Assembly: GCA_964016885.1 (NCBI GenBank)
Contig: OZ024740.1
Span: 144,522,001-144,586,000 of the forward strand
DNA: 64,000 nt
Direction: 5' to 3'
Source: Eledone cirrhosa
Taxonomy: Eukaryota
Shown in pieces: positions 2,860-46,500 of this stretch. The notes beneath the pieces were generated by a model. That model searched no databases, had not been told where the DNA came from, and saw nothing but the letters and a program-made list of their open reading frames with translations. The translations under genes were made by a program, and so were the position numbers. Positions within the stretch are counted from its first letter, which is position 1. The number at the start of each line of letters is the position of its first letter.

Positions 2860-4117
2860 TTGGGTCGTCAAGTATGAAATTTGTAGTGAAGCATATGGTC
2901 AACTTTGACAGCTTCTTATTTCATGTTAGTGTTACATTTTGACATTCTTTTGTTTTTGTTAGAAAGCTGCCACACATATTTCCTCTTTCTAAATCATTTT
3001 GCACTTTAAAAAATATTAAAAATCCTTTTTTCATTATTCTTGTTTGGAAACGGAGAAGTCAGAAATTTGTACAATTATGAAATATGAGTTCTTACGTAGA
3101 AATACAGCATCGCAAGCAGCTCGGAATATTAATGGTGTATTTTGCTCTAATATTACTACACAGCAGACAGTATCAAATTGGTTTGCAAAATTTCGTTCTG
3201 GTAACTTTGACCTCATGAATGAGCCACGCAATCGGCTAGAATCAAAGGTGGATAATGACAAACTGAAAGTCACCGTCGAGTCAGATCCATCTCAAAGTGC
3301 ACATGAATTATTGTTGATGTTTGGTGTTAGCAAACAATATTAACTCACATAGCTGAAGTCAGTAAAGTGAAAAAGTTGGATAAGTGGGTTCCTCATGAAC
3401 TGAATGAACAGCAGAAACGTTTGGAAGCTTGCTGATGTTGCCTTCTCGTCACAAAAATGATCCATTTTTTAATCAAATTGTAACGTGTGATGAGAAATGG
3501 ATCCAATATGATAACTATAAACATTCAGTAGAGTGGTTGGACAAGGACAAGCCACCAAAACACAATATTCATCAAAAGAAGAAGATGGTGAGTGTTTGGT
3601 GGTCTGGCGCAGGTGTGATCCATTATGATTTCATGAAACCTGGCTCATTGATCACAGCAGATGTATACTGCAACCAGCTGGACCAAATGATCCCAAAACT
3701 TGCAGAAAATCAGCCTAGATTGGTCAACCGATCGACTCCTATTCTATTGCACGACAACGCTAAACCACACACCGCACAAATGACAGTGGCAAAACTACAG
3801 GAGTTGGAGTTGGAAGTACTTCATCATCCACCATACTCACCAGATCTTGCCCCCACTGACTACTACAGATGGAATTTGGATAACGTTTTCATAGGAAAAC
3901 AATTTAATTCCGACAATACTGTAAAACAGGCCTTCCAAGATTTCATTGACTCTCGAAACCAAGCTTTTACACCACCGGACTGAACAAGCTACCGCTGAAA
4001 TGGCAAAAGTGTATTGACAATATGGGTGCATACTTTGATGAATAAAACTATTCCTTGTATTTATGAAACATTAACAAATTTTGTTTTTTTCTACAAATTT
4101 CATACTTGATGACCCAA
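2860..4117 (+). mobile_element. Full-length mariner DNA transposon, inactive
   Basis: 27-bp TIRs ttgggtc(g/a)tcaagtatgaaatttgtag at 2860-2886 and 4091-4117, flanked by TA at 2858 and 4118; 1258 bp long. Confidence 0.95.
3044..4030 (+). pseudogene. Mariner transposase, frameshifted
   Basis: HTH region in ORF 3044-3343, WVPHEL near 3385, and TCDEKW, HDNAKPH and YSPDLAPTD in ORF 3429-3983; stops and frameshifts between them. Confidence 0.93.
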
Positions 4118-8059: not shown

Positions 8060-9017
8060 TGTGGCTGACAGTAGGGAGCCAATGCTCAAAATTGTAATTG
8101 TACTGAAAAAGACAATAGACCAGGGGATGTCCAACGAGAAAATAACTACAAGGAAGAAGAGCAACTTTCATGAAAAATCCCTTCATAGCACCTTCTTTAA
8201 CAAAACGGAATTCAGAGATCCACAGACATAGAACTGGTTAAAAAGAGAAGACCTTAAAAAAGCTACAGAAGGAATGCTAATGGCTGCGCAAGAGCAAGCC
8301 CTCAGAACGAAGTGGATGGAACACCATATTGACAAAGAGGAGGCTAGCTCACTGTGTAGGATCTGTGGAGAGAGAGAGGAGACTGTGGCTCGCATTGTAT
8401 CTGAGTGTAAACACCTAGCCCAGACTCACTATAAAGGCTGGAGATATATGATAGGCAGCGTGATCTACTGGCATCTATGCAAAGTAAACAATTTACCACA
8501 TTCGGAGAAGTGGTATGAGCATAAGCCAGAGTAGGTGATAGAAAACGATCAGGTTGAAGGTGCTATGGGATTTTAGGATACAGACGGACAAGAAACTGGA
8601 ACACAATAGGCCTGATCTGGTGGTTTTGGACAAGGAAAAAAGATTGTGCCTGATAGTAGATGTAGCCTGCCCATTTGACATGAGAGTGCAAGAAAAGGAG
8701 AGGGAGAAAATTAACCAATACCAGGATTTAAAGTGGGAGTTAAAAAAGATTTGGAACTGCCATGAAGTCAAGGTCGTCCCGATTGTCATAGGCGCACTAG
8801 GTACTATCTTAAAGAGTTTCCAAGGATGGTTAAAGAAGATTGGTCCAGTCCCGTTTTTTGGAACACTTTAAAAGGCATGCTTGTTGGGAACAGCAAGAAC
8901 CCTCCAATACATTCTGAATGTCTGAGGGTGCAGGTAGTAGCTTGATATTCATTTCAACAAACTTTCCAGTTAAATAACATCAATGACTGAGACCCAAAGA
9001 ACAATAATAATAATAAT
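8060..9017 (+). mobile_element. 5'-truncated R4/Dong-like non-LTR element (RLE endonuclease)
   Basis: AAQEQALRT, CRICGEREETVARIVSEC zinc knuckle and NRPDLVVLD...IVDVACPFD PD-(D/E)xK motif; internal stop at 8532; ends in a (TAA)n tract. Confidence 0.9.
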
Positions 9018-9019
9018 GA

Positions 9020-9295
9020 AATTATTGTGTACAGTGCATAGGTGCCACTACAACTCATCAAAGGTACATGTATAGTACATAGAATAATGTCAGGAAAGTG
9101 AACAGTGTATGAGTCATGATATACACACAGATACACATGTGCGTGTGTATGGAGGGGGAATATCAGGTGTAGTGTCCTGGCAGCTAACAACTGACGCAGG
9201 TAGTTTGTTCCATGCTCGGAGTGTGAAAAAAATGTTTCCGAGAGTCATGGGAGCTGTACTGGTGTCGGTATAACATCTGCCAGAGGAGAAGTGTT
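9020..9295 (-). mobile_element. CR1-like LINE 3' end
   Basis: Clearly homologous to the 3' end of the LINE at 30540-30800. Confidence 0.8.
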
Positions 9296-9309
9296 ATAAG
9301 TAATAGGAC

Positions 9310-9585
9310 TGAATAACTGGAAAGCAATCTCTGCAAGAGATACAGAAAATAGTGCTGACTGGTACTATTCATATCCTAAGAAGAGCAGCTTTATCAATTT
9401 AAATACCTTCCAAAGAAGACATTTACTGTTGTTTGTGCCCTTCTTGTGGCATCATTTGTGTGACAATTGATTGTAAAATGTGTGTATTATCAAATTTTGC
9501 CTCCTCAGGTGTCAGGCTGACACTTGACATGATTTGGAAAGAAGCAGAACTCAAAGGAGGTTTCAAATAATAATAGTAATAATAG
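9310..9585 (+). mobile_element. Second R4/Dong-like 3' fragment
   Basis: ITGKQSLQEIQKIVLTGTIHILRRA C-terminal motif, 3' UTR, then a TAA-rich tail. Confidence 0.65.
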
Positions 9586-10762
9586 TAAAGTCCTGTAAAA
9601 ATGTCTTTGGTGTAATTACAAACACAAACTTCTCTGAAATTAAAGAATTGTATTTAAGATTGACAAAGGAAGCCATAGAAATTACAGAAACAATATTTAC
9701 ATCAATTATATATATACATGCTGGTTGATATATATAAACACACACACACATATATATATTATATATACACCTTAATATATTATATCAATATTCATACAGT
9801 ACAATTTCAATGTTGAATGTGTAGGCATATATATATATACGTAGTCCGTGAAGTTGTTAACATAAGTCCTGACAAATAAAAGAGTCTGATACATAGAAAT
9901 GAAACTTGAAATTGAAACCGTGTTGCAGGCTTCTCAGTTATAACAATAAATAATCCTAGAATAATCACAAATACAAAATAAACAAAGCTCAGGAATGTTG
10001 CTGCTGTGAAGTCCTCTAAGTCCTTGGAATGTGTGTGCTTTACATCAATATAATAGCCTTAGATGTTCTGACAAACAACATCAAAACCTGGTAACGTCAT
10101 CACTATTACACATTTGGTATGTACAACACAGTTGTCAGCTGAAACAAGAAAGCGTTTATGATATATATTCTGCCTTTAACTTCACTGATGGCACACCTCA
10201 TGTTATACGCCACTCCACTCCACCATAAATATTATCCAGCATTTGTTTGAAGGAGGTGGGGAGGAGAAAAAAAAATATATATATATATGTCCATATAAGG
10301 AGAAAAACATTTTAGAAGTCGATGGCTGTTTTATGTGATGTGATATCCCAGTGTCCACAGCTTCATGGAAACGGGTCAGTCCATTTTGTGGGGCTGCAGG
10401 TAGACTACACTAAAGATATTGGTCAGGGGTGAGTGGACACTTGCTTCAGACAACACAGTCAGATGTGGCGATGTGTGTGTGGTGAAGTGAAGAAATCCTT
10501 CATTAGCAACAATATACAATTAAGCTCGTTACATCAAGGTTCAATTTACAGTCAGTTCAATTCATCATAATCATAATTATTAACAATATTAGCAACAACT
10601 GGAGAGATTTGTACATTGAACAGGGATGGTCATGGCCGAGTAGTCAGCTGAAAGACAATGCAGTTCGTTTACACAATAATCAGGGCCAGGGAACATGTTT
10701 GGTCATGTGGTAGACACACAAACATTTAAAACTCACGAGAGATAAATAAATGTACAAAGATT

Positions 10763-11205
10763 ATTTCCCACATGTTCAGAATGAACACATTTTTCCCTAC
10801 GTGTCGAAAAACAAAACAAAACATTATTCGTTTCCTACATGTTGAAAAGGAAAACATATTTCCCACATGTCGAAGAGCAAAAACACATTGTCCTACATGC
10901 TGAGAAGTAAAGCATATTATTCCCTACATGTTGAGAAGCAAAACATTATTCTTTACATGTTAAAACAAACATTTTCTCCTACATGTCGAAAAGGCAAACA
11001 CATTTACTACATGCCCAGAAGTAAACATACATTTCCCTACATGTTTCCTAAACAAAACATTAATAATTCCTTACGTTAAACAAATATATATATTTCCCTA
11101 CATGTTGGAGAACAAACATTTACTACATGTTTTTTCGGAAGTAAAAACACACGTGTCTCTCCCACATGTTGAGAAATGTAACATTATTCTCTACATGTGG
11201 AGAGT
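10763..11205. repeat. About 30-bp minisatellite
   Basis: Roughly 14 diverged units of the form tttccctacatgttgaaaagcaaaacatt. Confidence 0.85.
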
Positions 11206-11379
11206 TAGAAAACCCCCAGCTTCAGACATTAAACAGAGGCCAGAGATAATTTGATAATATATAAAATATTCCACATAAAACAATTAACAAACGAATGTCT
11301 TTAACGAATTTGTGGTCGTATTTTTAATAAATTACAATTTATTTCATTGCATTTAAATTCTTATGGAAGACCTTATTTC

Positions 11380-11680
11380 TTTATAAAATTATGTTGGAAG
11401 ATTTTAATTTAAATAGGAACACTCTATTTCAATTAATTAATAAAGAATTTTGAGGTTTATTAAAATTATTAATTATTTCATTACTAAGTAACTTAATGTA
11501 AGGTTCTTATATAAAATTATATTGGAAGATTTTAATTTAAATAGGAACCCTGTATTTCAATTAATTAATGAGTTTTGAGGGATTTACTAAAATTATTAAT
11601 TATTTCATTACTAAGATAGTAACTTAATGTAAGGTTCTTATATAAAATTATGTTCGAAAGTTTTCATTTAAATAGTTACT
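11380..11680. repeat. AT-rich tandem repeat, about 128-bp unit, about 2.3 copies
   Basis: ataaaattat(g/a)ttggaagattttaatttaaatagg recurs near 11383, 11511 and 11642. Confidence 0.85.
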
Positions 11681-12011
11681 CTTTAAATGGGTGGTTTTAT
11701 TTCATAAAAGCAGAACTGGTTTTTGCCAGGTTCGAAATAAAAGGAGGGAAAATATTACAACTCTTTAATAAAATGTAGAATATTTTGTTATCAGCAGGTT
11801 TTAATTAATTAATTTTTAAAAATAAAATAAATAGGATATTTAAAATAAATAAATTTAAAAAAGTCTTAAAAACAAAATCAAGAACCGCAAAAAAGTGTGT
11901 AGTGGGTTTGATATGTAATGTGTTTAAATAAGTGTATAAAAATAAATATTTAGACATAGTATTTGTAGCTTAGACCAGGCTATAGAATAAGAGAAAGGAT
12001 GCAAGGTATGC

Positions 12012-12055
<44 letters not shown>

Positions 12056-12866
12056 TCGTTCTCAGTTACATGTGATCGATGCAACAACCCAAATATGCTG
12101 AAAATATTGATGGTTAGCGGGGGTGTTAGTGATACTTTCGACAGAGCTAATTCGTTCTTTGAGAGAAGCCATTTTTGTCTACCAACTCATATTCTTGGTG
12201 AAAGATTAGCCCAAGACAGACTATTTTTTTTATTAAAAATTAGTAAGACTAACGTAATTGATTGATGCAAATTCCTTAGAAATGTTAGCGAGCAGTTCCC
12301 GGGAGAAGCATCCACAACTATTCAATGGACTGGATGATGTAGGATACCCTGATAGTATAATTTATATGTATTTTATAACACACACACATATATATATATG
12401 TATAATTTTATTCACAGTTGTATAAATAACATTACAAATTGTTTATAATTAAGAATGAAAATATAAACACATATAATAAATACAATTAATTATTGCTAGG
12501 AACCTCACAAAAATATATGATCAAAGCGAGAGAAACAAAAACATTAGTTCACAACCAAATGCAACAATCGCCCAAACACCACAAGGGTCAACGGAAATGT
12601 TTAAGGCAAGCTAACACGCTCGCAGGTGATGGCGAGACTAAGGCGCTCAAACAACGAGCCACCTTCACTGTACTCAATACCGAAACAGTTTTAATATCCA
12701 CTTGTCATCAGACAATATTTAAACTCAAATTCGGTATTGAGTACTTTTCTCTCGTCCGTAAATATACGGATATATATTTATACTATAGTACAAATTTGGT
12801 ATAAATATCCAAGAGTTAGAGCACTCAGTCCATAGGACGAGTTAAGTATAATTAGTTACAACAGTG

Positions 12867-12925
12867 ACATGTACAGATACTTAAGTTTCGTTGGGTTATT
12901 CACCAACTCATCCAGCCTGATATAT
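12867..12925 (-). ncRNA. Predicted type-I minimal hammerhead ribozyme, variant core CUGGAUGA
   Basis: Minus strand: cagg-CTGGATGA-gttgg tgaataac ccaac-GAAA-cttaag-TA-tctg. Confidence 0.65.
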
Positions 12926-12944
12926 AATTTTAAAAAAGTTAATT

Positions 12945-13004
12945 ATATGACAGGCTGAATGAGTTGGGGGAATAACCCAACGAAACTTAAGTACCTGTAC
13001 ATGT
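12945..13004 (+). ncRNA. Predicted type-I minimal hammerhead ribozyme, variant core CUGAAUGA
   Basis: atatgacagg-CTGAATGA-gttggg ggaataa cccaac-GAAA-cttaag-TA-cctgt a catgt. Stem I is 10 bp with one bulge, stem II is 6 bp, stem III is the palindrome ACTTAAGT, and the site is GUA at 12991-12993. Confidence 0.75.
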
Positions 13005-14167
13005 CACTGTTGTAACTAATTATATATATAATTGGCAGTATATAATTTGTGTAAGCCACATGTGCGTATGTGTTTAGGTATTGCTTTTATTGCGGTTTTT
13101 TCTTTAAAAAAACAACGCAATGTTTTAATCCCCAGACTGCTCCACGGTAGTTGGCCAGATGTCAGAAATGATGGAACTACTACTAATCTCAATGTGGTCG
13201 CTTGACCGTTAGAAATAACAACCAAATCTCCCCCAGTACCATACTGTCTTGATGAAAAAAAAAGGAGATATTGGATATGTCCCAGATATCTGCAATGTCT
13301 AATAAAACAAAAGGAATAGTAACGACTGGAAGGCAGTGAAATAAGTACTATACTTATAAAATACTGCCTAAAAACAAGGGTTAATATATTATATGCGAAT
13401 GATTATCAAGAAATATGTATGGTGGTGCCACACACCGCTGGGTTCTGCAACAGTAGATTGTAAAATCCACCTAAGAACCCCTGACACGAAAGTGCTACAT
13501 CTTTATTAGGTGGTAAGATTTGTTTGGGTAGTGGTAATTTGAGAATGTATGCGCCATGATATCTTTCTTCCTACCTCCCTCTGTCACACAGTGTTGACAA
13601 AACATATTCACTCTCTAGTCTGTGGTAGAGCACCAGTTATCTATAGCTATTTACTTATACATATATGTGTGTATGTATAGATAAGGAGAAATATAATGTG
13701 TAACGACTATGTTTTTATGCATCTTCAGACAATAAATGCTTCTAGTTATCAATCTATTTACTTATCTGTCTGTCAGTTTATAGATCAATCTGTCTACTTG
13801 CACATCTATCTCTCTATCCACCTATTTATGTATATTTACCAATGTATCTATCTTCAGACAAAATCAAGAACTACAACAAAGCAGGAATCCCTATGGGAGT
13901 CTGAAGATAGATAGATATATACAAAGATAGAACAAAGCCATTGTAATTTAATGCAAAAAATATATCTATATATCTATAGAAGAAAATGATTGTAATTTAT
14001 TTAAATGAATGTAAAATTAAATAGAATAAAGGCTGGAGACACAATAGGGAGGTCAAGGATAATTGAGGATTCAAGCATCTTTACATAGAATATTGTAATT
14101 AGGGAATTATCAAACTAATATTTTTTCTACTGTAAACCCTGTCATTTTTTACAGGTATTGTTAGTCA

Positions 14168-14347
14168 TAATAATCGTTTCTACTTTTGGCACAGGCACGC
14201 AATTACCCAGTGCATTACTGGTACTTTATTTTATCGACCCCGTAAGGATGAAAGGCAAAGTTAACCTCGGCGGGATTTGAACTCAGAATGGCAAGGGACG
14301 TAACTAACTCTATGCGTCAAAGCATGGCGTCCGACCCTCTACCGATA
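14168..14347 (-). mobile_element. Young tRNA-derived SINE
   Basis: Near-identical to the copies at 16085, 23776, 43180 and 48450. Confidence 0.85.
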
Positions 14348-15446
14348 ATGATCATGGAAGTCAGTAGACCCATGATTTGATAAAACAAAAGTATAAAAAA
14401 TAAAATGGAGCTCTTGACATAACTTTCTCACTTTTTCACATTCATTTTAACATATCAATGTCTTGCGATAAGCAGTAAACATCGTTTTTGTTGTCAACAT
14501 ATATTAATATTTACATACATATATATATATATAATCATCAGGTAATAGCCCCCACCATTAATTTGCCTGTCTGTTTGTCTATCTCTTTATTTATCTACCT
14601 ACCAACCTACCTATTTTTTTGTATATTTGCTTATCAGTCTGTCTATCTATAGCTATCTATGTATATTTACCAATGTATCTATCTTCGGATAAGAACAACC
14701 ACAACAACAAAGCATGAACCCCAGCAGCCCAAATATAAATATATTGGTAGAACAAAATCATTGTAATTAATGGATATAGGTTTGATACTGATTACAGAAA
14801 ATCATCATTTAACACTTGTTTTCCCTGCTAACAAGGGTTCAATGAGTCTTCACAAACAGTCAGTATTCAAGTGGGGCTAGTGATCTCTCAGGAAAACCTG
14901 CATCTCACTTATATACAATCTTGTGCTCTACCGAGTGTATTTTATCATGACACCAGCACTAGGGGTGTTGTCATGCCTTTGACACGACAACACCCTGAAA
15001 GGTCCTCCCAACCCTTTGTTTGGCCAACTCTCTATGGCTGGATATTCTTATCACCAACCACTTTACCGGATGTACTAGCTACGTTTATCATGTAGACAAC
15101 CAACACTAGAGAGGCTGTCATAACTAAAGGATCTTCTTGATCTTGAACCTTTTCAGCATGGTTTCTACAATGAGGAGCCCTTCCTATCACCAACCAGCTT
15201 ACAGAGTGTAATGGGTTCATTTTTTGGCACTAGCACTACAGAGTTTGTTAGTTATTGTCCCAACTGAAAAACATTCTCTGCTGTGGGGGAGAGGTAAGGA
15301 AGATAAGTATGATGTTATGCATGTATGGTAGGTGTGATGAGTAGGGGGAACGGATGACCTTCAATAGCATGGGAGTAGTAGTCACTGGTGTCTCAGGATT
15401 TTTAGAGAGGAAATGCCATAACAGTGAGAATAGTTAAGGTGTGGTC

Positions 15447-15750
15447 ACAGGCATGGCTGTGTGGTTAAGAAGTTTGCTTCACAACCATGTGGTTTTGGGT
15501 TCAGTGCACACCACCTTGGGCATGTGTCTTTTACTATAGCGTCGGGTTGACCAATGCCTTGTGAGTGGAAGTTGATAGACAAAACCTGCAGAAGCCCATC
15601 CTATATATGTGTGTGTGTCAGAGTCTGTGTTTACATTTGTGTCTGGTGATGATCTGTCAGTTAGTGGTTTGACAAAAAGAGATTGATAAGATAAGTACCA
15701 AACTTGGAAAAATAGGTACTGATACAGCCTGGCTGCTGTCTAAAAACTGA
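15447..15750 (+). mobile_element. tRNA-derived SINE, second family
   Basis: A box tggctgtgtggtt and B box gggttcagt, followed by a ccttgggcatgtgtc core. Confidence 0.7.
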
Positions 15751-16084
15751 AACCAGTAAAAGACACATCCACATCGAGATATATATATGCATAGTAAGTG
15801 TCCACTCATTGCTGGGTATGACCAAAAGGGGAAGAGACAAACAGAGAGAATGTGTTGAAATGGCACATTGCGTAAGGGAAAGCTGAAAAAAGAAAAAAAT
15901 ACTTTGAATGATATTAAAGGATGTGGCAGTTGACAAACAGAAAACAAACAAGTTTGGTCTATTTCCAACAATATCGGAAGATATGACTGAATTGAATCAT
16001 TTAAAATATATATATGAGATTATTTCTTTCAATGTCCAAATATAGTTTGAAAAGTAAATCACGTGCCATTATCTATCCATCTCA

Positions 16085-16272
16085 GGCGGTAGATTGGCAG
16101 TATCGGTAGAGGGTCCGGACGCCATGCTTTCCAGCATAGTTACGTCCCTTTATGATCTGAGTTCAAATCCCGCCGAGGTTGACTTTGCCTTTCATCCTTA
16201 CGGGGTCGATAAAATAAAGTACCAGTAATGCACTGGGTATTTGCTGGCCTTGTGCCTAAAGTAAAAACAATT
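16085..16272 (+). mobile_element. Full-length young tRNA-derived SINE with TSD
   Basis: A box tggcagtatcgg, B box gagttcaaatcc; 15-bp TSD attatctatccatct at 16068-16082 and 16270-16284. Confidence 0.92.
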
Positions 16273-16850
16273 ATCTATCCATCTAATTATGTGACTTTCA
16301 ATCTATTTGACTAGTCAAGAACCCATCAATCTGTTCTTCTCAATTCTTTTCTTTTTGGCCTCTATATTTTTCATTAATCATTTTCTTTCTATCTTCCTTT
16401 ATATTTGATAACTTTCATAACTAGTCAAAACTAATCTTAAGTGAAGGGAGATAATTCTCCAGATAAAAATCTGGGTTATTTCCCCCTCTACAATTTACTG
16501 GCATATCCAGGATATACCAATATTTTCAATTATAACAGTACACGAAACAATATATATCCAATTGTATCCTAACAGCTGATCGCTTTATGTGTGTATATTT
16601 ATACATAGGTTGCAATCTAACAACTAAAACAAATAAAAAGAATATATATATTCATTTAATGGTTTCGGTCATTAGACTGCGGTCATGCTGGAGCATAGTT
16701 TCGGATAATACTTATTCTTTCAAGCTTGGCACTTTCTTTTGTCGAACCATTAGGTTACTGGACATAAAAACAAACTTAAACAGAGACACGCATACATATA
16801 TTTAGCAATCATATACTCTCTACATGCAAATAGTTATATTTTTACCTTTG

Positions 16851-16898
<48 letters not shown>

Positions 16899-19654
16899 CA
16901 TATATATATATGCAGTTTCTGTACTAAATCTCTGCGCTTATACACACACACACACACATATATATATAGCACAGGTAAAACTATATATACATAGATCAAA
17001 GGAAATTATATATGATAGTATATAATTGCCACGTCTTTTCAGAATTAGCTTTATATCGATGCCTAGATATTGATTATCCGAATTGTTTCATTACATTTTC
17101 GAAACACTGGATGTACAATTCCCCTGAAACATGTGTAAGGAATTAAATATGATTTAAAAGACAATTTTTCCATCTACATACTTGTTTATATATATATATA
17201 TATAAACATATAAGTGCAGCCATATGATGATACATATACGATTTCATCAAATCGGTCGCTAAATGTAACATATATTATTGAGGTCGTGATAGAGACACTA
17301 GATAATTAGTTCTTATCATTACAATATTAATCAAAGGTCCATTGTTATATTATCAAAACAAATAAGTAGACATATAGACCGATCTCTAACGCATTAAATG
17401 ATATATATATATATAGACACTAACTGCGGCTAGAACAAACGATTGTCATGAGGCAAAAAACAAAAGTCAAATATTTAAACAGGAAACCATTTTACGATTC
17501 GTTCATTGTAGGTTTTTCAAATTATAAATATCAAATAATTATGATCAAATAAATATAAAATTTACCAAAATGATCATATAGACATTAAAAATATAATAGA
17601 TTTTAAAAAAGTAATACATCTATGAAATCCTCGTTGAGGTCAAATTAGCCTTTCATCTTTCTGAGGTCTTTAAAATATAACACCAGTCAAATACTGGATC
17701 AATTTATATTTCTATAATGCATCCTTGATGCATATGGAATTATGATATAAGACGAAGTATTTTTAAAGGAAATTATAATCTGAGAGTAATTCTAAACCGC
17801 ATGCAAGCTTTTAAATCTGCTAAATTTTGTCAGTGTTCCCGATTAACAATCACTACGCTAAAATACAAACACGAGCACGTATTCGTTTAAGCGTAGGTTT
17901 TTAACCAACTCGACCTTTATTTAGTGTGCCTTTTGCCATTTATTTAAAAAAACAACGGTTTTATGATTTTTATATTTAGAACATCAGATATTCTGAATTT
18001 GCAATCATTCAAAAATTAGACACAAATTAAAGGATTTACAGTTATTTCCTGTTTTCGTTTTGAAATATGCCTTTACGAATATATATTATAGTACATTTTT
18101 GTACAAAAATATATTTTCATAAATTTTTGTTGTTGGCATTTGTAATTATATTAAAATCCAATTAAATTTTCAGAGAGAACCTACAATTTTCTTCATTGAA
18201 TACACATTACTATCATGCAGCTTAAGACATTCTTCTCATTTATCAATGTAATTAATATATAAATGCATTCACAAAACATTGGATTGAGATCCCTTATCTT
18301 TACTTTTTATGTCAATTAATTTTCTTTCCTTTTTTTTTAGATTCTGAACATCCGATGTTCAAATAAAATATCCGAAGACAATTTTTTTTTAAAACGGAAT
18401 AATAAAAAAAAGTTATAGGTGAGATTGAGAATCCACGTTTAAATTGTCCAAGCATGAAATAACATTGCTTACCTTCTTTTTTTCTTCTTTTTCTCATATT
18501 TTTTATGTAAATAACTAAATTTACGTGAACAACGACTCAGAAACCTCAGTTAAATCTTAGAGAAATGTCTCTATCGTGATCAGTCGAGATTGTTACCCTT
18601 AAATGTACATATGTTGGCGATCTTAGTTAGGTGTGATAGTACAAACTAACCGATACGTGGCAGTAGTTATGGCGTAATAACAAAGTGATAAATACAGATG
18701 TTCATTTCGCTATTTTCTCTTTAAGGAGTAACTGATAAGAGTTATCCACCTTTGACTAGATTAGGATCGATAGCAACCCTCTCTAGAGAAGAAGAAAAAG
18801 GTATTTACTGGTGTAAGGGTACTTGGCAGGAGAAGATCGAGATTTTATTATTTAGATGTAATTTAATGAAATAAACAGAAAAAAAAATTCAAAACACAGT
18901 AAAAGGAATTGTTGGAATCTTAACCATTAACAATTTGGCTATCGGAACGGAATTAGCCGCCCGCGTGGTGGACTGGCTGTTTCAGCGCGTCCTCCTCGCC
19001 GGCATACAGGATAATGCATTCTCCGCCTGTCAGTCGGGACCCAGAAGCGGAGAGTTAGTTAGTTGGTAGTGGAGTATACTCGTTCGGACGTTGCTTTCTC
19101 ACATGTTTTGATCCATTCATTTCATATAATAAACACAGAAATTCACAGACCCCCTCCCCATTAACTTATGAATATGGTAGAAAGGTAATCTATGTTGGAT
19201 AGAATGTAATTTATTTAGCACTACATGTGTTATTTATCTTGCTAATAACAACCAACTCTACTTTGCAATTAAAAATATATATATGCGACCTTTATACCAG
19301 GTAATAATCCTCCCCACCCTCGAGAATTTTTCACGTGCAGCACTCAGTTCAAGAATTCGTCCTTTCATTGAGGGGTCTCCTGAAAAGCCCATAGCCTCAT
19401 ATCCCTGGTGCAATTTAATTCCACTCTTGCCACATATCAGTCAGTGAAACTGTGCAGCCTGGACTTTGAAGAAAAAATTAGGTATATTTTGTCTATTTTC
19501 TCTTCACAATTATAATTGTTATATACATATACGCGCGCGTGTGTGTGTTGATCCCTAGTAGAATCGAGGGTAACCACAGTAAATAAGGTACTCAATACAT
19601 AAGTGAGGGCAACCACTATAAAACTTATAAATACCAATGACTTACTATATCAAC

Positions 19655-20181: not shown

Positions 20182-21038
20182 CGAGGAGTGTCAGAAAATG
20201 TCCAGGACTGATGTCACAAAAGATTTATTTCAAACCCAAACTTCACACTAAGAGTTTTCTCCTTCGAAGTAATCCCTCTGGAGTCTAATGCACTTTTCCA
20301 TCCTTTTCTTCCACGCTTGCATGCACTCCTGGAAGGATTCTTCCGGGATCCTCCGCAGTTCCGTCATCAAAACGGGTCCCCTCCGGGTCGTACTCGAAGA
20401 TCCATGACTCATCACCAATGATGACTGTCCCTAGCAAGTCTGGTTCGGTTTCAAGACGCTCGAGGATGTCGTGGCACACTTGCATGCGTCGACCCTTCTG
20501 GTCATCGTTCAGCAGTTTTGGCACCATCTTCACGCAGACTTTCCGCATATCCAAATCTTCAGTGAGAATCTTCCAGACGCTGTCCCGATTCATGCCCAGC
20601 TCATTTGCCATCAGTCGAACAGTCAGTCGACGATTGCTACGCACCATCTGCCTGACGCGCTCAACATTGACCTCAGTCCTGGTTGTTGAGGTCCTTCTTC
20701 TCCTGGGGTCATCTTGCACCACTCAAAAACACGTGAGCGTGACATCGTCTCATCTCCATACACTTGATGCAGCAATCCCAGTGCTTCTGACGGAGTTTTC
20801 TCCAACCGTACCAGAAACTTCAAGTTTGTTCGTTGCTCTGTGCTCATTGCTTGACGACCTGAAACAGAGGACATGTATATAAAATTACGAAGAAAAAGGT
20901 TTGATCGCTGCAGAGAGCTAAGATTACAGTTACATACTCCAGGGGGATTACTTTGAAGGAGAAAACTCTTAGTGTGAAGTTTGGGTTTGAAATAAATCTT
21001 TTGTGATATCAGTCCTGGAACTTTTCTGACACACCTCG
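20182..21038 (-). mobile_element. Internally deleted mariner with about 105-bp terminal inverted repeats
   Basis: TA-cgagg...cctcg-TA ends. Transposase remnants MSTEQRTNLKFLVRL, KMVPKLL and GDESWIFEYDPE, with the catalytic middle deleted. Confidence 0.92.
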
Positions 21039-21042
21039 TATG

Positions 21043-21238
21043 TAGTCAAAAGTAGAAGTTATATATGTGTGTGTATATATATATAGAGAGAGAGAGAAAG
21101 AACCATATATCCAGAGAAGGCACAGTATATTGTATATGTAATCTCCGTAATATGGATTTAGTATATATGCAATCTACTCTGTCATATATGGTTCTTTCTC
21201 TCTCTATATATATATACCTATATATTCTACTTTTGACT
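21043..21238. repeat. Imperfect inverted repeat among TA/GA tracts
   Basis: agtcaaaagtagaa...gagagaaagaaccatatat versus atatatggttctttctctc...ttctacttttgact. The left-arm segment recurs at 21540-21590. Confidence 0.75.
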
Positions 21239-25729: not shown

Positions 25730-28274
25730 CATATAGAGGGAGAGTGGGAATTTCTGAAAGCAAACCTGCTGTTGGCGACAGACGAAGTCTGTGGCTGGAG
25801 CAGGCCTGTAGGCAGGAGGAGAGTAACATGGTGGTGGAACAGTAAGGTGGAGGGGTCAATTAAGGCCAAAAAGCAGGCTTGGAAAGTATGGCGGGATGGG
25901 GGAAGTAGAGAGGACTATCAAGTGGCCAGGAGGGAAGCTAGGAGACAAGTGTACTTAGCAAGAAGGGAAGCTGAGGAAAGAAAGTTCAAGCATGTTCTAC
26001 AACGCGATGACCAAAAACGTGAGGTGTTCAGGATTACTAGGCAATGCGTCAAGGAAAACCGTGATATTGTCGGGGAGAAGTGTGTACTAAACGACGATGG
26101 CACACTTGCCATCACCGACGCTGATAAGAAGGTAGCTTGGAAGTGTCACTATGAAAGGCTACTAAATGAGGAGAATAATTGGGAGAAAGGCAGTCTCCCC
26201 CATATCGACCCAATAGAGGGACCAGCAGTGTTAGTCGAGGGGAGTATAATAAGTAAGGCAATCAAGGATATGAAGACGGGTAAAGCGGCTGGGCCTTCGG
26301 AAATAGTTGCTGAGATGCTGAAGGCATCTGGCACGGTGGGACACACCATGGTCACCCGCATAGTTAACCAAGTCGTACAGAATGGGGTTGTTCCGAAGGA
26401 CTGGCATAGCAGCATCATCGTTAACTGTTATAAGGGTAAAGGAGACGCCCTAGATAGGAGTAACTATAGAGGCATTAAATTAATCGACCAGGTCATGAAG
26501 GTCACGGAAAAAGTAATAGCGCAACTAATCAGAGAGAGAATTGACCTAGATGAAATGCAGTTCGGGTTTGTGTCAGGCAAAAGTACCACAGACGCTCTTT
26601 TCATAGTACGACAACTACAGGAGAAGTACCTAGCTAAAGGTAAACCCCTCTACTTAGCTTTTGTCGACTTGGAGAAAGCCTTCGACAGAGTCCCCCGCTC
26701 CATTATCTGGTGGGCTCTTAGAAAACTAGGCGTTGACGAATGGCTTGTGAGGGCTATACAAGCCATGTATAAAGAAACAGTCAGCAAGGTTAGAATTAAC
26801 AACGAATATAGTGAAGAGTTTAGCGTAAAAGTTGGCGTCCATCAGGGCTCTGTTCTCAGCCCACTACTATTTATTATTGCCCTTCAGGCTATAACAGAGG
26901 AGTTCAAGACAGGCTGCCCATGGGAACTCCTATACGCAGACGACCTGACACTCATAGCGGAATCAATGGCCAAGCTAGAGAAGAAATTCCAAACATGGAA
27001 GCACGGCCTAGAGTCAAAAGGACTTAAAATTAACCTGGCTAAGACCAAAGTACTAGTTTGTAGGAAAGAAAACAAGGCGGCGGTCCCTTCTGGGAAATGG
27101 TCGTGCTCGGTGTGTAGGAAAGGCGTAGGTAGAAACTCCATTTTATGTCCTAAATGCAAAGTATGGGTGCATAAAAGATGTAGTGGGATCACAGGTAAGC
27201 TAACTAAGAACATAGATTTTACATGTGGCCGGTGCTCTGGTGCAATAAGTAGCAGCAAGTGCCCACAAACTACTAGCTCTTTCAATTGCGCAGAGGGTTC
27301 TATAGAAATAGTGGACAGCTTCCGTTACCTGGGCGATAAAATCAGCAGTGGGGGAGGGTGCTCTGAAAGTACTGTAGCTAGAGTCAGAACTGGTTGGAAA
27401 AAGTTCAGAGAGCTTATACCACTATTAGCTGCTAAAGGGTTCTCACTAAAAATGAAAGGCAGGTTGTACGATGCCTGCATACGAACAGCAATGCTGCATG
27501 GCAGCGAGACCTGGGCATTGTATGCAGAGGATATACGCAGACTAGAGAGGAACGAAGCTTGCATGCTCCGCTGGATGTGTAACAGTAATATACGTGAACG
27601 GCAAAGCATAAACGAACTAAGGAAAAAATTAGAGATAAGAGGGATCAGATGTTGTTTACTCGAGAGAAGGCTACGTTGGTATGGACACGTGATGCGCATG
27701 AAAGTCGATAGCTGTATAACAAAGTGCAGGGCAATAAAGATAGACGGTAGTCACGGAATAGGCAGACCTAGAAAAACCTGGGACGAGCTGATAAACTCCG
27801 ACATCACACACTTACACCTCTCCAAGACAATGTCACTGGACCGAGACCTTTGGCGGTACTCAGTAACAGAGAAGACCCGCCTTACCTAAATATATAGTAA
27901 AACCTACTCCAGCCAGTAGGCATCTCTAACAAAATACACCCCGTCCCACCACCACCACCCCATCCACACCACCCCGTTCTATGTAAAGTTATGTTGGTGC
28001 CGCGCCATCGAGGCCGAAACAAATGAGATCGTGTAGGTGTCACGACAAAAAACACACAGTCCACGCTGTAATGTGGCCGTGTAGGCAACACGGTAAAAAC
28101 CTCCCAGACCCACACTGTAAATGTGGTTGGTGTTAGGAAGGGCATCCAACTGTAGAAAACCTGCCAGACAGTCCTATGCGAGCAAGACAATCACTCTTGC
28201 CTCAAGTGGGACTACCCCCGTCCAAACCCATGCAAGCGTGGAACACGGACGTTAAACGTTGATGATGATGATGA
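25730..28274 (+). mobile_element. 5'-truncated RTE-clade LINE
   Basis: Long RT ORF, 3' UTR and (GAT)n tail at 28260-28274; the AP-endonuclease part is absent. Confidence 0.93.
25772..27889 (+). CDS. RTE reverse transcriptase (partial ORF) with inserted PHD-type finger
   Basis: 705 uninterrupted codons with NYRGIKL, QFGF, FVDLEKAFD, GVHQGSVLSPLLF and LYADD; C4HC3 pattern at 27104-27235. The frame is open from 25730 with no native start. Confidence 0.92.
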   Translation: MATDEVCGWSRPVGRRRVTWWWNSKVEGSIKAKKQAWKVWRDGGSREDYQVARREARRQVYLARREAEERKFKHVLQRDDQKREVFRITRQCVKENRDIVGEKCVLNDDGTLAITDADKKVAWKCHYERLLNEENNWEKGSLPHIDPIEGPAVLVEGSIISKAIKDMKTGKAAGPSEIVAEMLKASGTVGHTMVTRIVNQVVQNGVVPKDWHSSIIVNCYKGKGDALDRSNYRGIKLIDQVMKVTEKVIAQLIRERIDLDEMQFGFVSGKSTTDALFIVRQLQEKYLAKGKPLYLAFVDLEKAFDRVPRSIIWWALRKLGVDEWLVRAIQAMYKETVSKVRINNEYSEEFSVKVGVHQGSVLSPLLFIIALQAITEEFKTGCPWELLYADDLTLIAESMAKLEKKFQTWKHGLESKGLKINLAKTKVLVCRKENKAAVPSGKWSCSVCRKGVGRNSILCPKCKVWVHKRCSGITGKLTKNIDFTCGRCSGAISSSKCPQTTSSFNCAEGSIEIVDSFRYLGDKISSGGGCSESTVARVRTGWKKFRELIPLLAAKGFSLKMKGRLYDACIRTAMLHGSETWALYAEDIRRLERNEACMLRWMCNSNIRERQSINELRKKLEIRGIRCCLLERRLRWYGHVMRMKVDSCITKCRAIKIDGSHGIGRPRKTWDELINSDITHLHLSKTMSLDRDLWRYSVTEKTRLT

Positions 28275-30535
28275 AGCTTGGGATATATGCTTATAGGTTC
28301 TGGCCAGAGGTTAGGTAGGTAGGGAACACATGGATATACCCCAGCTGGACAAGATCAACTAGGGAGGCATCTCATGAGGTAGGTGAGCTATGCTCCCCCC
28401 ACTCCCTTTACAATAGCAAATATATTCTGCAGCTATTGTGAAAAAAATTTATAGCCATGTATCAAAATACAAACAATATTTTAATCACTTCATTTCACTT
28501 GCATTTTTAATAGCCATCTTTAAATTTTTGATTTCTTTGAATCAAACTGACAATTAACATACTGACATTTTACATCAAGCTGTAAAATATTTATTTCAAC
28601 AATTCATTTAAATAACCAACATTTTCACAACCATTTTAGTATAGAAAATGGACAGAGAGGTGAATTGTGAGTGATTAGAGCATCAAATAGAGTGCCTTGT
28701 AGTTGAAATCTCTCTGAGGTCAACTTTGCTTTTCATCTTTTGGGAGTCAATCAATAAAGTACTAGTGCAGCATTGGGAACTTTTTTTTCTTTCTCTTTCT
28801 CTCTGGAAGAAATCAGCTGTTGTCAGGCTTCAAGAGGAATGGGCTTCACCAGGTTTAAAATGAAATTTGGGAAAGTTTGTTAACTGCAGGAATAAATAAA
28901 GCCTTTCAACAGTGAAGATTTTTTTTCCTCAACGAAGGGTTTGGTTTTTAAATGTCACTATTTTCTTCTCACCATAGCATATCCAGATTTACAAAATTTA
29001 CCAAATAACGCAGACCTGCACTAATTTCTTCAGACTCTACACTTGTTTTCCTAACTTCTTTGCATAATCATATTTTTTACGATTTGAATAGTTAGCACAT
29101 ATTTTGGTAAAGTAAAATATATGTTAAATAGAACAAACCCATTCTGCTATCCTAAAACACTTCAAGCTATTATCAATTATCCTAATTTAAAGTATAGAAT
29201 ATAATCAAGATTGAAAAAATGGTTTCTTTATGCTGTGAAGGCAAAAGAAATTTGTACAATATTTTATATATATATAATATAACATGATTAAATTGAAATA
29301 GCCTCTACTGCAAGTAAAAAAAATGAAATAGGAACATTTATCTCAAAACAATAATGCTCTATGGTTAACTTTGAAATTAAGCCATATAGGAAATCAGAAT
29401 CTTATGAAATTTATTATTATTACTATAAAAAATTAAACTTAAGTAAAATTGGAAACAGCTTCATTAATACCCCAGCCCCTTGAAAAAAAAACCACAACAA
29501 AAAACATTGAACAAGAAAATTTGTGAAGAAACATAGCTAATTACAAAATTAAGAATCTCAATTCATAACATGGACCGCACAAATGCGATAAAGCTTATAA
29601 TTTCATAGGCTTCATACCAGATTCTTACTACTACTCTGATAAGTACATAAGCAAAAACTGTCAAACTTTGCATAAGGCACTCCTACTTTTAGTTTTTTTA
29701 AATTTAATCACAAGTTGTTTTTGTTTTGTTTTTGATAACCAGTAAGAATGGAAATAAAACCTTGGGAATTTCTATATTCGTTCTGTTATACATAGATTGC
29801 ATGTAATATACAACATATGAGTTATATAATCTACTTAATAGCAACATTAATGTAATTTAATAAAAAAAATATGGCGTGACAGTTTATGACCTCATTATTA
29901 AGGCTTGGTCTTATACCTTTCAGGATCTCTAATGTAATTAAGAATATCTTGTTTTTATTATATACAACCACAACTGTGGATAGCTAAGTCAGGCCCCCTG
30001 CTAATATACATTAAAATATTTTAGTATCATAAAACTCAGTGAATGCAGCAGTGAGTTTCATTGATATATGCATTAGACAACTCAGTGAATGTAGAAGTAT
30101 GTTTCATGTATTAGACAACTTACTGTTACACCCAACAATACCCATCATTTATTATTATTGTTTTCTGTAATTCAGTATTTTAAAAATAGTATTAACCAGG
30201 ATGCCCTTCACTATGGCTGCCACCCTCACTAACCAGCACTGTATACAACTATGCTCATGTCTGAGCAGTGTATACATAGCTGTGTCTGATTTAAAAGTTT
30301 CCATTATATTTGTAAAAGGAAGCAGTGAGTAGAAATAAATAAATGAAATTTAAAATTTTGTGTGGCTACATTAACACTGACATGCAGTTGACTCCCAGTT
30401 TATATAGTTCTAAAGTTAATTTTGAGTGGTTCTAAATTTAAATTTTGTGTAAAATATGTGCTTACATGGTAAATGGTGGTTAAAGGATTTGAAACATTCA
30501 TAAAATGTTTAAAAAATTCATTATAATAATAATAA

Positions 30536-43531: not shown

Positions 43532-46500
43532 TTCAGGTAAACAGTTTTGTATTGTAGAACCAGGGGTGTTTAGTATCAATAGGGTTGAGAAAGCAATTCA
43601 ACGTTAAAAACAACTGCTTCATTAATATAGAAAATGCCCATATTTCAAAACCCACCCCAACTTTTCTAGCATAGCAGAAATGACTATAATACTATGCTAG
43701 TATAGAAAAATAATTCCCATTATATTTAATTTAATCATTAGAGACGTTGTCCAGCACTCCTCACAATGCTGCTGTCTTTTGCTCTGATGGTGGCTTGGTT
43801 GTTCACCCCTTCCTTTATATTTTTTTTAATATTGCAACATTAAAGGAATATATCCTTCTGAAAGATTCGCAAGCAATTTATAATGTTATTTAAGCATTTG
43901 TAGGGTTATTCATGTATATATTTAAAACATATTTGTTATGTTATTCTACTGTAAATTTATTTATATCCTTTGTATATTAATTGTATTTATTTATATTTTC
44001 ATTCTGTGAAGTATATAGCATATATACAAATTAAAGTATTTTTATTGTCAATAAAATAAAGTACCAGTAGAGTACTGGAATAGATTTCTAAATTTGATCA
44101 ATGTCTCTCTGTTTTTCTCAAATTCATACAATATCTAAGGAATGGCATTTTTACTGTTTTCAATTTTTGTATATTTCCCTCCCAAAATTACAATTCTAAC
44201 AGGCTTTCCTTCATTGTCTACATAATTAATAAAAGGATTTCTAAATTCCTAGAAACATAACAGATTCCTGTCCCTTCTACTTATTATGCTCATGACATCT
44301 GATTAATTTTAAAATCATATTCTTTACATATGGAATTTATGTATTAACAGCTTTGTTGATACACTTAAAATGAGATGTGTAAGCACTCTGTAAAATCCTA
44401 TGAGAATGACACAGATTGTACAGCATAGTATTGAATGACTATTTAGTTTTGAATTACTGCCTACACATTTTATGCACACTGAGTACAGTCACACTCTTAT
44501 TTCATTTAGTCTGTAAATTTAATCTAATGTATTTAAATTTAATTTAATGAATTTAAAATTTTTACTTTCAGCACTTGTTTATATTTTTCTAAACTTTGGT
44601 CTACTTTACAGTAGAATTATTAAAAAGTGATTATTATTTATCTTTTATTATTTTTTGTTTTAGCTGAGATATACCACCTAGACTGAGGTGGGGAGTCTGC
44701 GGTGTACTCCCCTTCCCTTACTTTCGTTATTTAATTTTTTTCTTTCGTTTTTATTGCAAACATTACATAATCCAACTGAAATTTCTTGAATAAAATAAAT
44801 ATAATTTCAAAAGTTTTAAAATGTTTATTTATTTAAATAATACTACTAATTAGAAATTTAGAAAGGAAAAACAATATACAAAAATAATGCCAAAAACATA
44901 AGTACTTAGGTTAGTCAGTGGGTCTATACTACCAACACATTTTATGCACACAGAGTATGATCACTATTTCAGTCTGTGAATTTAGTCCAAGTTATTTTCT
45001 TATAATTACTGGTAGTTAACAAATATATCATTATTTAATTCATATTTTTATTGTTATTAAACATTTAATTGCTGGGGTCAACTTTGCCTTTCATCCTTTC
45101 TAAGTCGATAAATAAAGTACCAGTTCAGTACTGGGGTTAGCTCTCTCTCTTTCTCTGGAAGATATTGGCTGTGTTCAGATATGAAGAGGTTGTGGGCTAT
45201 GTTAGGTTTAAAGTGCCCAACACACGTTTCATGTCACAATGGTGCCACTACAACTCCATCAGGAGTTATGGGTCTACTTACACATACAAACATTTAATCA
45301 AAATATCAACAGAATAATATCAAGATATAAGAATAAAATAAGAAATAAAAATTAACACAAATAGAAAAATAATTCTTCATAATTAAACTGTGAATGCTGT
45401 ACTGTTTCTTAATTAGAAATTCTTAAATTAGCTTTAAAGTCAAGTGGTGCCATTTTTTTAATAGATAAAAACTTTCAAATGTAATCACTATGCATAATTC
45501 AATGTTGGGTCAATTAATTCAACATTGAAAATTATTAGCTATCATAATAGCCTGTTCATTACAATATGTCCTAATATGTTTCTTCAGTGCAGTCCAACCC
45601 TTGCTTGCAGGGAAAGTGCCTGTAAAGTGATGATGATGATGTGCTCTGAGGCAATAATTATTTTTATTCCAGTATTCCCTTTAAAACACCACCATGTTAA
45701 AAGTTTTATAGAACAGCATTGACAAGAAAATACCAATTCCTGTAAATAAAAAAAATAAAAAATCAAGAACTTTTCTTTCTACAACCTTCTATCACCATAC
45801 ACAAAAAGTGGGTCACATTATCAGCTGGTTTTTTTCTCACCATGCTATTACTAGTTCTAATAATATACAAGAAAAAAAATTATCAAAGCAATTTCCAGCA
45901 ACCCTTTGCATGTGACTAAATAGAGGAAAAAAGTCAAGCAGCTTCTATTTTTCTATTATACAGCCACTGACTAATCCAAGTGCTTGCTATTTCTGAAACT
46001 TACTTAACAGTAGCATTATCTAAATAAATAAATATAAAAACTGGACTGAAGCAATCTTCACCAATTTAATATTTCTACTTTATGTAACACAAATATCAGA
46101 GGTGAAAATTATTAATTTTATTATCATCCATTCTCCCTGCTAGCAAGGGTTGGCAAGGTCACAACCAACCACAGTAGTATTTAATCAGAGCCACAGACCT
46201 CTCAGACATGGCTTGAGAGGGGGACTGCATCTTGTTTACATACATTTCACTTCAGAGTGTAGTGGGTACATTCTATCATGGCACCAGTACCAGGGATGCT
46301 GTCATGTCTTTGATACAACTGAAGAGTCCTCTTTGTTTGGAAAGTTTTCTGTGGTTGGATGCTCTTCCTATTCTCAATCACTTTACAGATTAAAAAAAAA
46401 AGATATGCACTAATGGACTGAAAGAAAAGTTGAGTGTAAGATGAATTGAATGTAGCATGCAAGAGAGACGATTATGTTGGTATGAGGATGTAATATGTAA

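Follow-up and report, generated by a model that had tools for sequence, protein, structure and literature searches.

A probable back-to-back 5'-truncated Penelope-like element end with A6a-type hammerhead motifs in Eledone cirrhosa

Organization of the locus

The window analyzed here is a 64,000-nt stretch of the Eledone cirrhosa genome, in which a relaxed type I hammerhead descriptor, applied to the whole 64 kb, recovered two motifs, one in each arm of an inverted repeat, and no others. The arms (12847-12929 and 12941-13024) match over 58 nt at 97% and over 27 nt at 89%, and they differ by five substitutions and one 1-nt gap over approximately 84 nt. Recovery of the repeat arms and of both hammerhead-like motifs established that the inverted hammerhead pair described in the first-pass annotation is real. 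Position 12847, which had been taken as the start of the feature, is indeed the start of the arm, but the element reaches further left, to approximately 12771. Homology to other family members spans approximately 12760-12775 to 13024-13030, and the summed contig depth, which is approximately 10 outside, rises to tens or more solely within 12769-13040. No ORF remnant of the element was found in 9001-17000. The features are as follows.

12771-13024, no strand: entire insertion, made up of two 5'-truncated ends of a Hydra-clade Penelope-like element placed back-to-back (delimited by homology and contig depth; no ORF remnant)
12771-12846, minus: family tail of approximately 75 nt past the short end, on one arm only; ends TA-rich; predicted hairpin
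12867-12926, minus: left-arm hammerhead motif, decayed, with a G in its core, a G-U pair in stem I and no distal part of stem I
12930-12940, no strand: turn between the truncated arms, 11 nt, A/T-rich, off the ribozyme cut site
12945-13004, plus: hammerhead motif of the right arm, type I, A6a core; stem I in its extended form pairs 12945-54/12994-13004
12950-54/12994-98, plus: right-arm stem I
12955-12962, plus: right-arm 8-nt core CUGAAUGA, read C3 U4 G5 A6 A6a U7 G8 A9; family consensus
12963-12981, plus: right-arm stem II and loop II (pairs 12963-68/12976-81, G10.1-C11.1 closing); differs between subfamilies
12985-12993, plus: palindromic stem III ACUUAAGU (palindrome 12985-92) and A17; predicted intermolecular pairing
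12994-13024, plus: 31-nt stretch between the predicted cut and the short end of the element, which joins (TA)n at approximately 13024-13030; same end in many copies

Short-read contigs from three runs of one sample in one study, which may be the source sample itself, cover 12875-12968 with zero differing letters. As these contigs agree in every letter, neither the turn nor the A/G difference between the arms is an assembly error. A UUGUA(A)CUA-like stretch precedes both element ends (12770-12780 and 13010-13024), each time ending in UAUA, and is a candidate start signal for reverse transcription. The left side of the element is adjoined by a separate 75-nt inverted repeat (12670-12744) with 15-bp perfect arms and a folding energy of -29.8 kcal/mol, which has short matches at 43975-44005 and 29248-29275 and is probably a small MITE-like repeat. 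Elsewhere, the window contains a 719-aa reverse transcriptase (RT) frame (25730-27889, plus), RTE-like to judge by its motifs, and two transposase remnants (3408-3983, plus, and 20285-21045, minus), presumably mariner-like on the same basis.

The two hammerhead motifs

The right arm contains the complete type I hammerhead set, namely C3, U4, G5, A6, G8, A9, G12, A13, A14, A15.1-U16.1 and H17, arranged in a three-way junction of stems I, II and III with one extra base after A6. The G-C-closed stem II, the palindromic stem III and the GUA site noted at first are all present in this arm; GAA lies between stem II and the palindrome, and cleavage is predicted after 12993. The left-arm core is CUGGAUGA at 12915-12908 (minus), with its predicted cleavage site at 12878 and an A-to-G change at 12912; A6 is lost or shifted. 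The A/G difference between the arm cores is confirmed and is covered by contigs without a differing letter. Treating this position as a two-state [A/G] site was not borne out, as G occurs in 0 of the 100 matches listed (of 227 copies) and in 2 of 155 members of a second set, one of them the left arm itself; the left-arm G is a private mutation.

The fold had been called a clean type I hammerhead, which is correct for a dimer but not for a single RNA. Cofolding of the right arm gives an 8-bp intermolecular helix, with a gain in energy of 7.4 kcal/mol over separate monomers. When the right arm is folded alone, the pair probability of stem III is 0.01, and read-through RNA over both arms forms one long hairpin in which every hammerhead pair has a probability of 0.00. 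Because the two motifs are on opposite strands, they do not pair within one RNA and are not a working pair.

Identity of the element

The family was linked to Penelope-like elements through an intact 714-aa Hydra-type ORF of another family, which in tblastn matches the same strand upstream of 48 of 181 ribozyme copies at 28-51% identity; this set includes one copy belonging to the other family, and 11 further copies have opposite-strand matches only, from the inverted arm. The alignment reaches 596 of the 714 residues in longer family copies, in broken pieces, and in these copies the ribozyme lies 3' of an ORF for RT and a GIY-YIG endonuclease on the same strand. The family pieces carry DKT, RW(K/R), a CxCx5C linker, and CxxC and CxH around E/N residues, with no cysteines (no CCHH) between the GIY and YIG boxes; RWR and DKT were read in one decayed copy (L036), and RWK and DKT in the intact paralog. 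These motifs and the cysteine-free GIY-YIG interval, as in Craig et al. 2021, place the family in the Hydra clade. Two other assignments were rejected: an ORF starting just upstream on the opposite strand, as the ORF shares its strand with the ribozyme and terminates before it, and a Naiad, Neptune or Terminon identity, by domain order and motifs.

A Pfam scan of four family fragments and the intact paralog found neither RT nor GIY-YIG, and the intact paralog has 1498 homologs. As no long ORF was found among 30 sampled family loci (maximum 205 aa), the family is likely extinct. A metagenome scan with its endonuclease piece yielded no relative, nor did a search with the 205-aa piece among longer proteins. 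The intact paralog comes from a young and very abundant Hydra-type family of the same genome (G000; for example L213:933-3074, plus, and L212, L214 and L215), for which there are 47,075 first-look candidates. Its 714-aa ORFs are intact and would be a source of active protein for tests; each is closely preceded by a canonical hammerhead whose stem II measures 12 bp.

The 8-nt core across the family

A search of the 3.0-Gb genome with the arm gave 2440 first-look candidates. Exact patterns recovered 152 copies with an 8-nt core versus none with a 7-nt core, and looser patterns 451 exact matches to the 8-nt core CUGAAUGA versus five with 7 nt; reversed-pattern controls gave 0 matches. Two of the five 7-nt matches are unrelated motifs of other families, and three are duplicates of one copy. 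A sample of 30 loci, picked by the upstream endonuclease coding region instead of the ribozyme, had a readable core in 25, one of them the query locus; all 25 cores are 8 nt long, and 16 are exactly CUGAAUGA. These counts make the 8-nt core the consensus of the family and bear out the proposal that the extra base is older than the fold-back.

Three copies on C8 (L063:1487-1568, plus), approximately 4.4-4.6 kb apart, combine a 7-nt core with G10.1-C11.1, a shortened loop II and a stem I mismatch, and represent the only instance of this core and pair combination observed in the family; they are located in a segmental duplication adjoining an intact 1129-aa RTE-like ORF (L105:995-4384).

The expectation that canonical descriptors miss the variant also held. 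The Rfam hammerhead model gives no match on the window at gathering score, and the 41 weak sub-threshold Rfam matches include no hammerhead family, only hairpin (miRNA-type) models; the published descriptors of PMC8557442 and PMC4209133 require cuganga. A search of the genome for other A6a families with a different stem II gave six matches versus six in the control, and viral contigs gave two pattern matches, neither of them accompanied by stems I and III. Of the 78 Hydra-type loci taken from metagenomes, 58 carry the canonical 7-nt motif, and a C3-type 8-nt core occurs in none; two weak antisense U3-type matches there are chance-like. Two Hydra-type metagenome loci have a U3-A8 swapped core (L222:2400 and L271:2103, plus). 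In the genome itself, locus L061 carries a pair of canonical hammerheads that belong to other families and share a strand, with 1.3 kb between them (L061:182 and L061:1501, plus).

Conservation and covariation

An alignment of 66 copies, drawn from 108 full-length ones, mostly one arm per locus and with few gaps, has 89.5% of its cells paired. Its covariation score exceeds 497 of 500 shuffles (3/500), a score that relatedness alone can give, and two-sided changes are not above the shuffles (4 pairs, 193/500). One distal stem I pair is G-U in 25, A-U in 24 and G-C in 10 of the 66 copies. Double changes at 10.2-11.2 do not exceed the control (six versus six).

Six lineage consensuses, two of which (F and G) rest on three and four copies, share CUGAAUGA. 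Their ribozymes without loop II are 90-100% alike, versus 41-86% over 72-94 aligned columns for the UTR beside the ribozyme, and loop II differs; upstream sequence was the main basis for delimiting the lineages, and some of the sampled copies had been selected with ribozyme patterns. The catalytic letters C3, U4, G5, A6, G8, A9, G12, A13, A14, A15.1-U16.1 and H17 are kept across lineages at 41-57% UTR identity. Conservation extends to the 25 nt 3' of the motif, in 17 of 25 columns, so protein binding could explain it, and part of it may reflect recognition by RT.

A likely shift of register in the young subfamily

Within the family, the canonical hammerhead core CUGANGA occurs only in a young sister subfamily, most lineages being A6a. 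This seventh lineage has the core CUGAA(U/C/G)GA-A in 142 matches with an A10.1-C11.1 mismatch. Position 7 in the 100 CUGAANGA-A matches listed of these 142 is U in 78, C in 14, G in 6 and A in 2, thus 22 non-U. The same lineage holds CUGAAGA-AA in 144 matches, in which the core is canonical, the extra base stands after A9 and 10.1-11.1 is A-C. The sister cores within the family are CUGAAUGA-A, CUGAAGGA-A and CUGAAGA-AA, and because all seventh-lineage cores are of the same length, the shift needs substitutions alone and no indel.

The seventh lineage has the shortest end branches (0.04-0.075 versus 0.07-0.16). In a tree rooted with eight outgroup proteins, which are unnamed homologs, and retaining 24 of 40 family rows for coverage, A6a copies are located on both sides of the root, and those with the canonical core are interspersed in the young star. 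Forcing the canonical-core copies to a basal position made the tree 23.5 log units worse (p-AU 0.081). With one distant DNA outgroup, for which rooting is uninformative, the canonical-basal tree was not rejected (p-AU 0.69). From these trees, A6a is likely the ancestral state, and the young subfamily likely slid back to the canonical core by a register shift.

Insertion footprint

Two arms are present at 42 of 151 distinct family loci, all back-to-back. In 31 of these, one end meets (TA)n at a distance of 31 nt from the cut site and the other carries a tail; 11 have one end unclassified, and none has two alike ends. The query locus is of the form with one TA end and one tail (approximately 12771-12846). 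The spacers between the arms range from overlap to 2.2 kb, turn points vary between copies, and the copies form a continuum of 5' truncation that reaches into the endonuclease and RT regions. Three near-identical fold-backs (L123-L125), with the turn inside stem II, occupy separate sites within 0.6 Mb of C1, suggesting either duplication or a mobile fold-back subfamily.

Craig et al. 2021 (PMC8557442) drew an inverted truncated copy with a one-sided tail. Pairs of motifs on opposite strands, separated by 100-700 bp, were already noted by Cervera and De la Pena 2014 (PMC4209133), and two internal RT start sites of the kind described by Frangieh et al. 2024 (PMC11167929) explain a short end versus a tail. 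The inverted pair of the first-pass annotation is what Penelope-like elements ordinarily leave on insertion, its two motifs lying on opposite strands.

Interpretation of the locus

We consider it probable that the locus is the back-to-back 5'-truncated end of an old Hydra-clade Penelope-like element, whose A6a 3' motif is likely a slow dimer- or protein-dependent ribozyme, this copy being likely inert. The slow, dependent mode is suggested by Cervera 2014, Frangieh 2024 and Perreault 2011 together with the conservation among lineages. In the proposed course of insertion, the endonuclease would nick both strands of a TA tract, reverse transcription would start at two internal RNA sites, 31 nt and approximately 105 nt past the cut site, and each cDNA copy would stop just past the ribozyme, leaving two arms joined at their 5' ends. 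In the active RNA, the extra A would bulge out, C3-G8 and G12-A9 would still form at some cost in rate, and the palindromic stem III would form between two RNA ends. The core of the youngest lineage may have stepped from CUGAAUGA-G through CUGAA(U/C/G)GA-A to CUGAAGA-AA; the extra base, which first followed A6, would then follow A9, where Penelope ribozymes usually have it. The mutations of the left arm would have arisen once the element was in place, and both motifs would be hidden in the long hairpin formed by any RNA that spans the locus.

The main rival, which is unlikely but carries appreciable weight, accepts the same Penelope-like stub and regards the 8-nt core as a dead ribozyme, either in a canonical register with G8U and A9G or with an intolerable bulge, the fold persisting solely as a signal at which RT binds or starts. 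A6a is expected to disturb the contact of the A6/N7 phosphate with U4 (Perreault et al. 2011, PMC3088659), and ribozyme mutants of the PAc element still inserted in vitro (Frangieh et al. 2024, PMC11167929), so spread is no proof of cutting. The weak covariation and the equally conserved downstream 25 nt also suit a dead core, as does the loss of G10.1-C11.1 in a successful lineage; the spread of this A10.1-C11.1 lineage (142 matches) would likewise fit weak selection on catalysis. A dead core is harder to reconcile with the retention of all catalytic letters at 41-57% UTR identity while loop II changes, with N7 being the position that varies, and with a young lineage that reaches exactly the canonical core.

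That the inverted pair is a working device, with ribozymes trimming sense and antisense transcripts or with a hairpin RNA as the product, is very improbable: most of the motif is retained in both arms and a fold-back would give a long hairpin, but the same layout recurs at the 42 two-armed loci of the family, whose arms range from overlapping to 2.2 kb apart, the two motifs do not share a strand, the read-through fold hides them and the left arm has a private core mutation. A similarly slight chance is given to a non-autonomous retrozyme or MITE-like repeat in place of a truncated coding element. Most copies are short, the query copy is without an ORF, retrozymes derive from Penelope-like ends according to Li 2026, and the shared turn of L123-L125 is the sole hint from the copies themselves. 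The 48 of 181 same-strand upstream ORF matches largely refute this origin, and the truncation continuum into endonuclease and RT, the lack of a tandem monomer array and the differing turn points also oppose it.

The single locus is thus an ordinary fossil. A bolder claim about the family, which we hold only tentatively and with more doubt than belief, is that A6a is a working core in dimeric or protein-assisted Penelope ribozymes, selected through at least six lineages, with a stepwise, substitution-only path from A6 to A9 preserved; each step would then keep the full catalytic set in one register. If A6a is a working core, surveys requiring CUGANGA would have missed whole ribozyme-bearing retroelement families. 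For the role of the hammerhead in Penelope-like retrotransposition, the family offers a natural core series in one background (A6a with G-C, A6a with A-C and canonical with A-C), each with more than 100 copies. If all these cores cleave, core tolerance exceeds the descriptors and ribozymes have been undercounted; dead A6a forms would instead mean that the element can spread without cutting.

Comparison with known systems

The family shares with the Hydra clade, as presented in Craig et al. 2021 (PMC8557442), the RW(K/R), DKT, CxCx5C linker, CxxC and CxH motifs and the absence of CCHH, as well as (TA)n targets, a 3' hammerhead with palindromic stem III and an inverted 5'-truncated copy with a one-sided tail. 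It differs from this clade in its core, which is cuganga in 26 of 26 Hydra rows of File S2 and CUGAAUGA here, in its tail of approximately 75 nt versus 30-40, and in having no intact ORF in the sampled copies. With the minimal hammerheads of Penelope-like elements (PMC4209133), it shares the type I topology, a long stem II, a short stem I, a palindromic stem III, the predicted dimer and, probably, low activity. In those hammerheads, too, the 5' strand that precedes G10.1 is 8 nt long (consensus CUGANGAH); its extra base follows A9 in 56 rows of Fig. S3, whereas it stands after A6 here; the young sister subfamily CUGAAGAA equals the commonest strand of that set, but with A10.1-C11.1. The PAc Poseidon element (PMC11167929) resembles the family in its AT-rich targets, in a hammerhead near its ends and in two internal RT start sites, of the kind proposed here for the short end and the tail; it belongs to another clade and has a canonical core, and its cleavage was shown only with protein.

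The first-pass annotation had suggested that the 8-nt core might define a variant overlooked by canonical descriptors. A6a itself is not new: Perreault et al. 2011 (PMC3088659, Fig. 5), the sole relevant paper on A6a that the literature search returned, described and named a natural insertion after A6 that is active at a low rate. The available parts of Weinberg 2019, PMC11014351 and Li 2026 add nothing further on the core. The literature covered contains no report of A6a in Penelope-like elements, though Lunse et al. 2017, on hammerhead variants of such elements, may include one. The likeness to the variant of Perreault et al. consists of one extra nucleotide after A6, which as presented there is a rare variant, whereas here it is fixed in hundreds of retrotransposon copies within a dimer-type motif. 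On comparison of the family sequences, what appears to be new is an A6a core fixed family-wide, together with a young subfamily that arrived at the canonical CUGAAGA by substitutions alone, likely through a shift of register.
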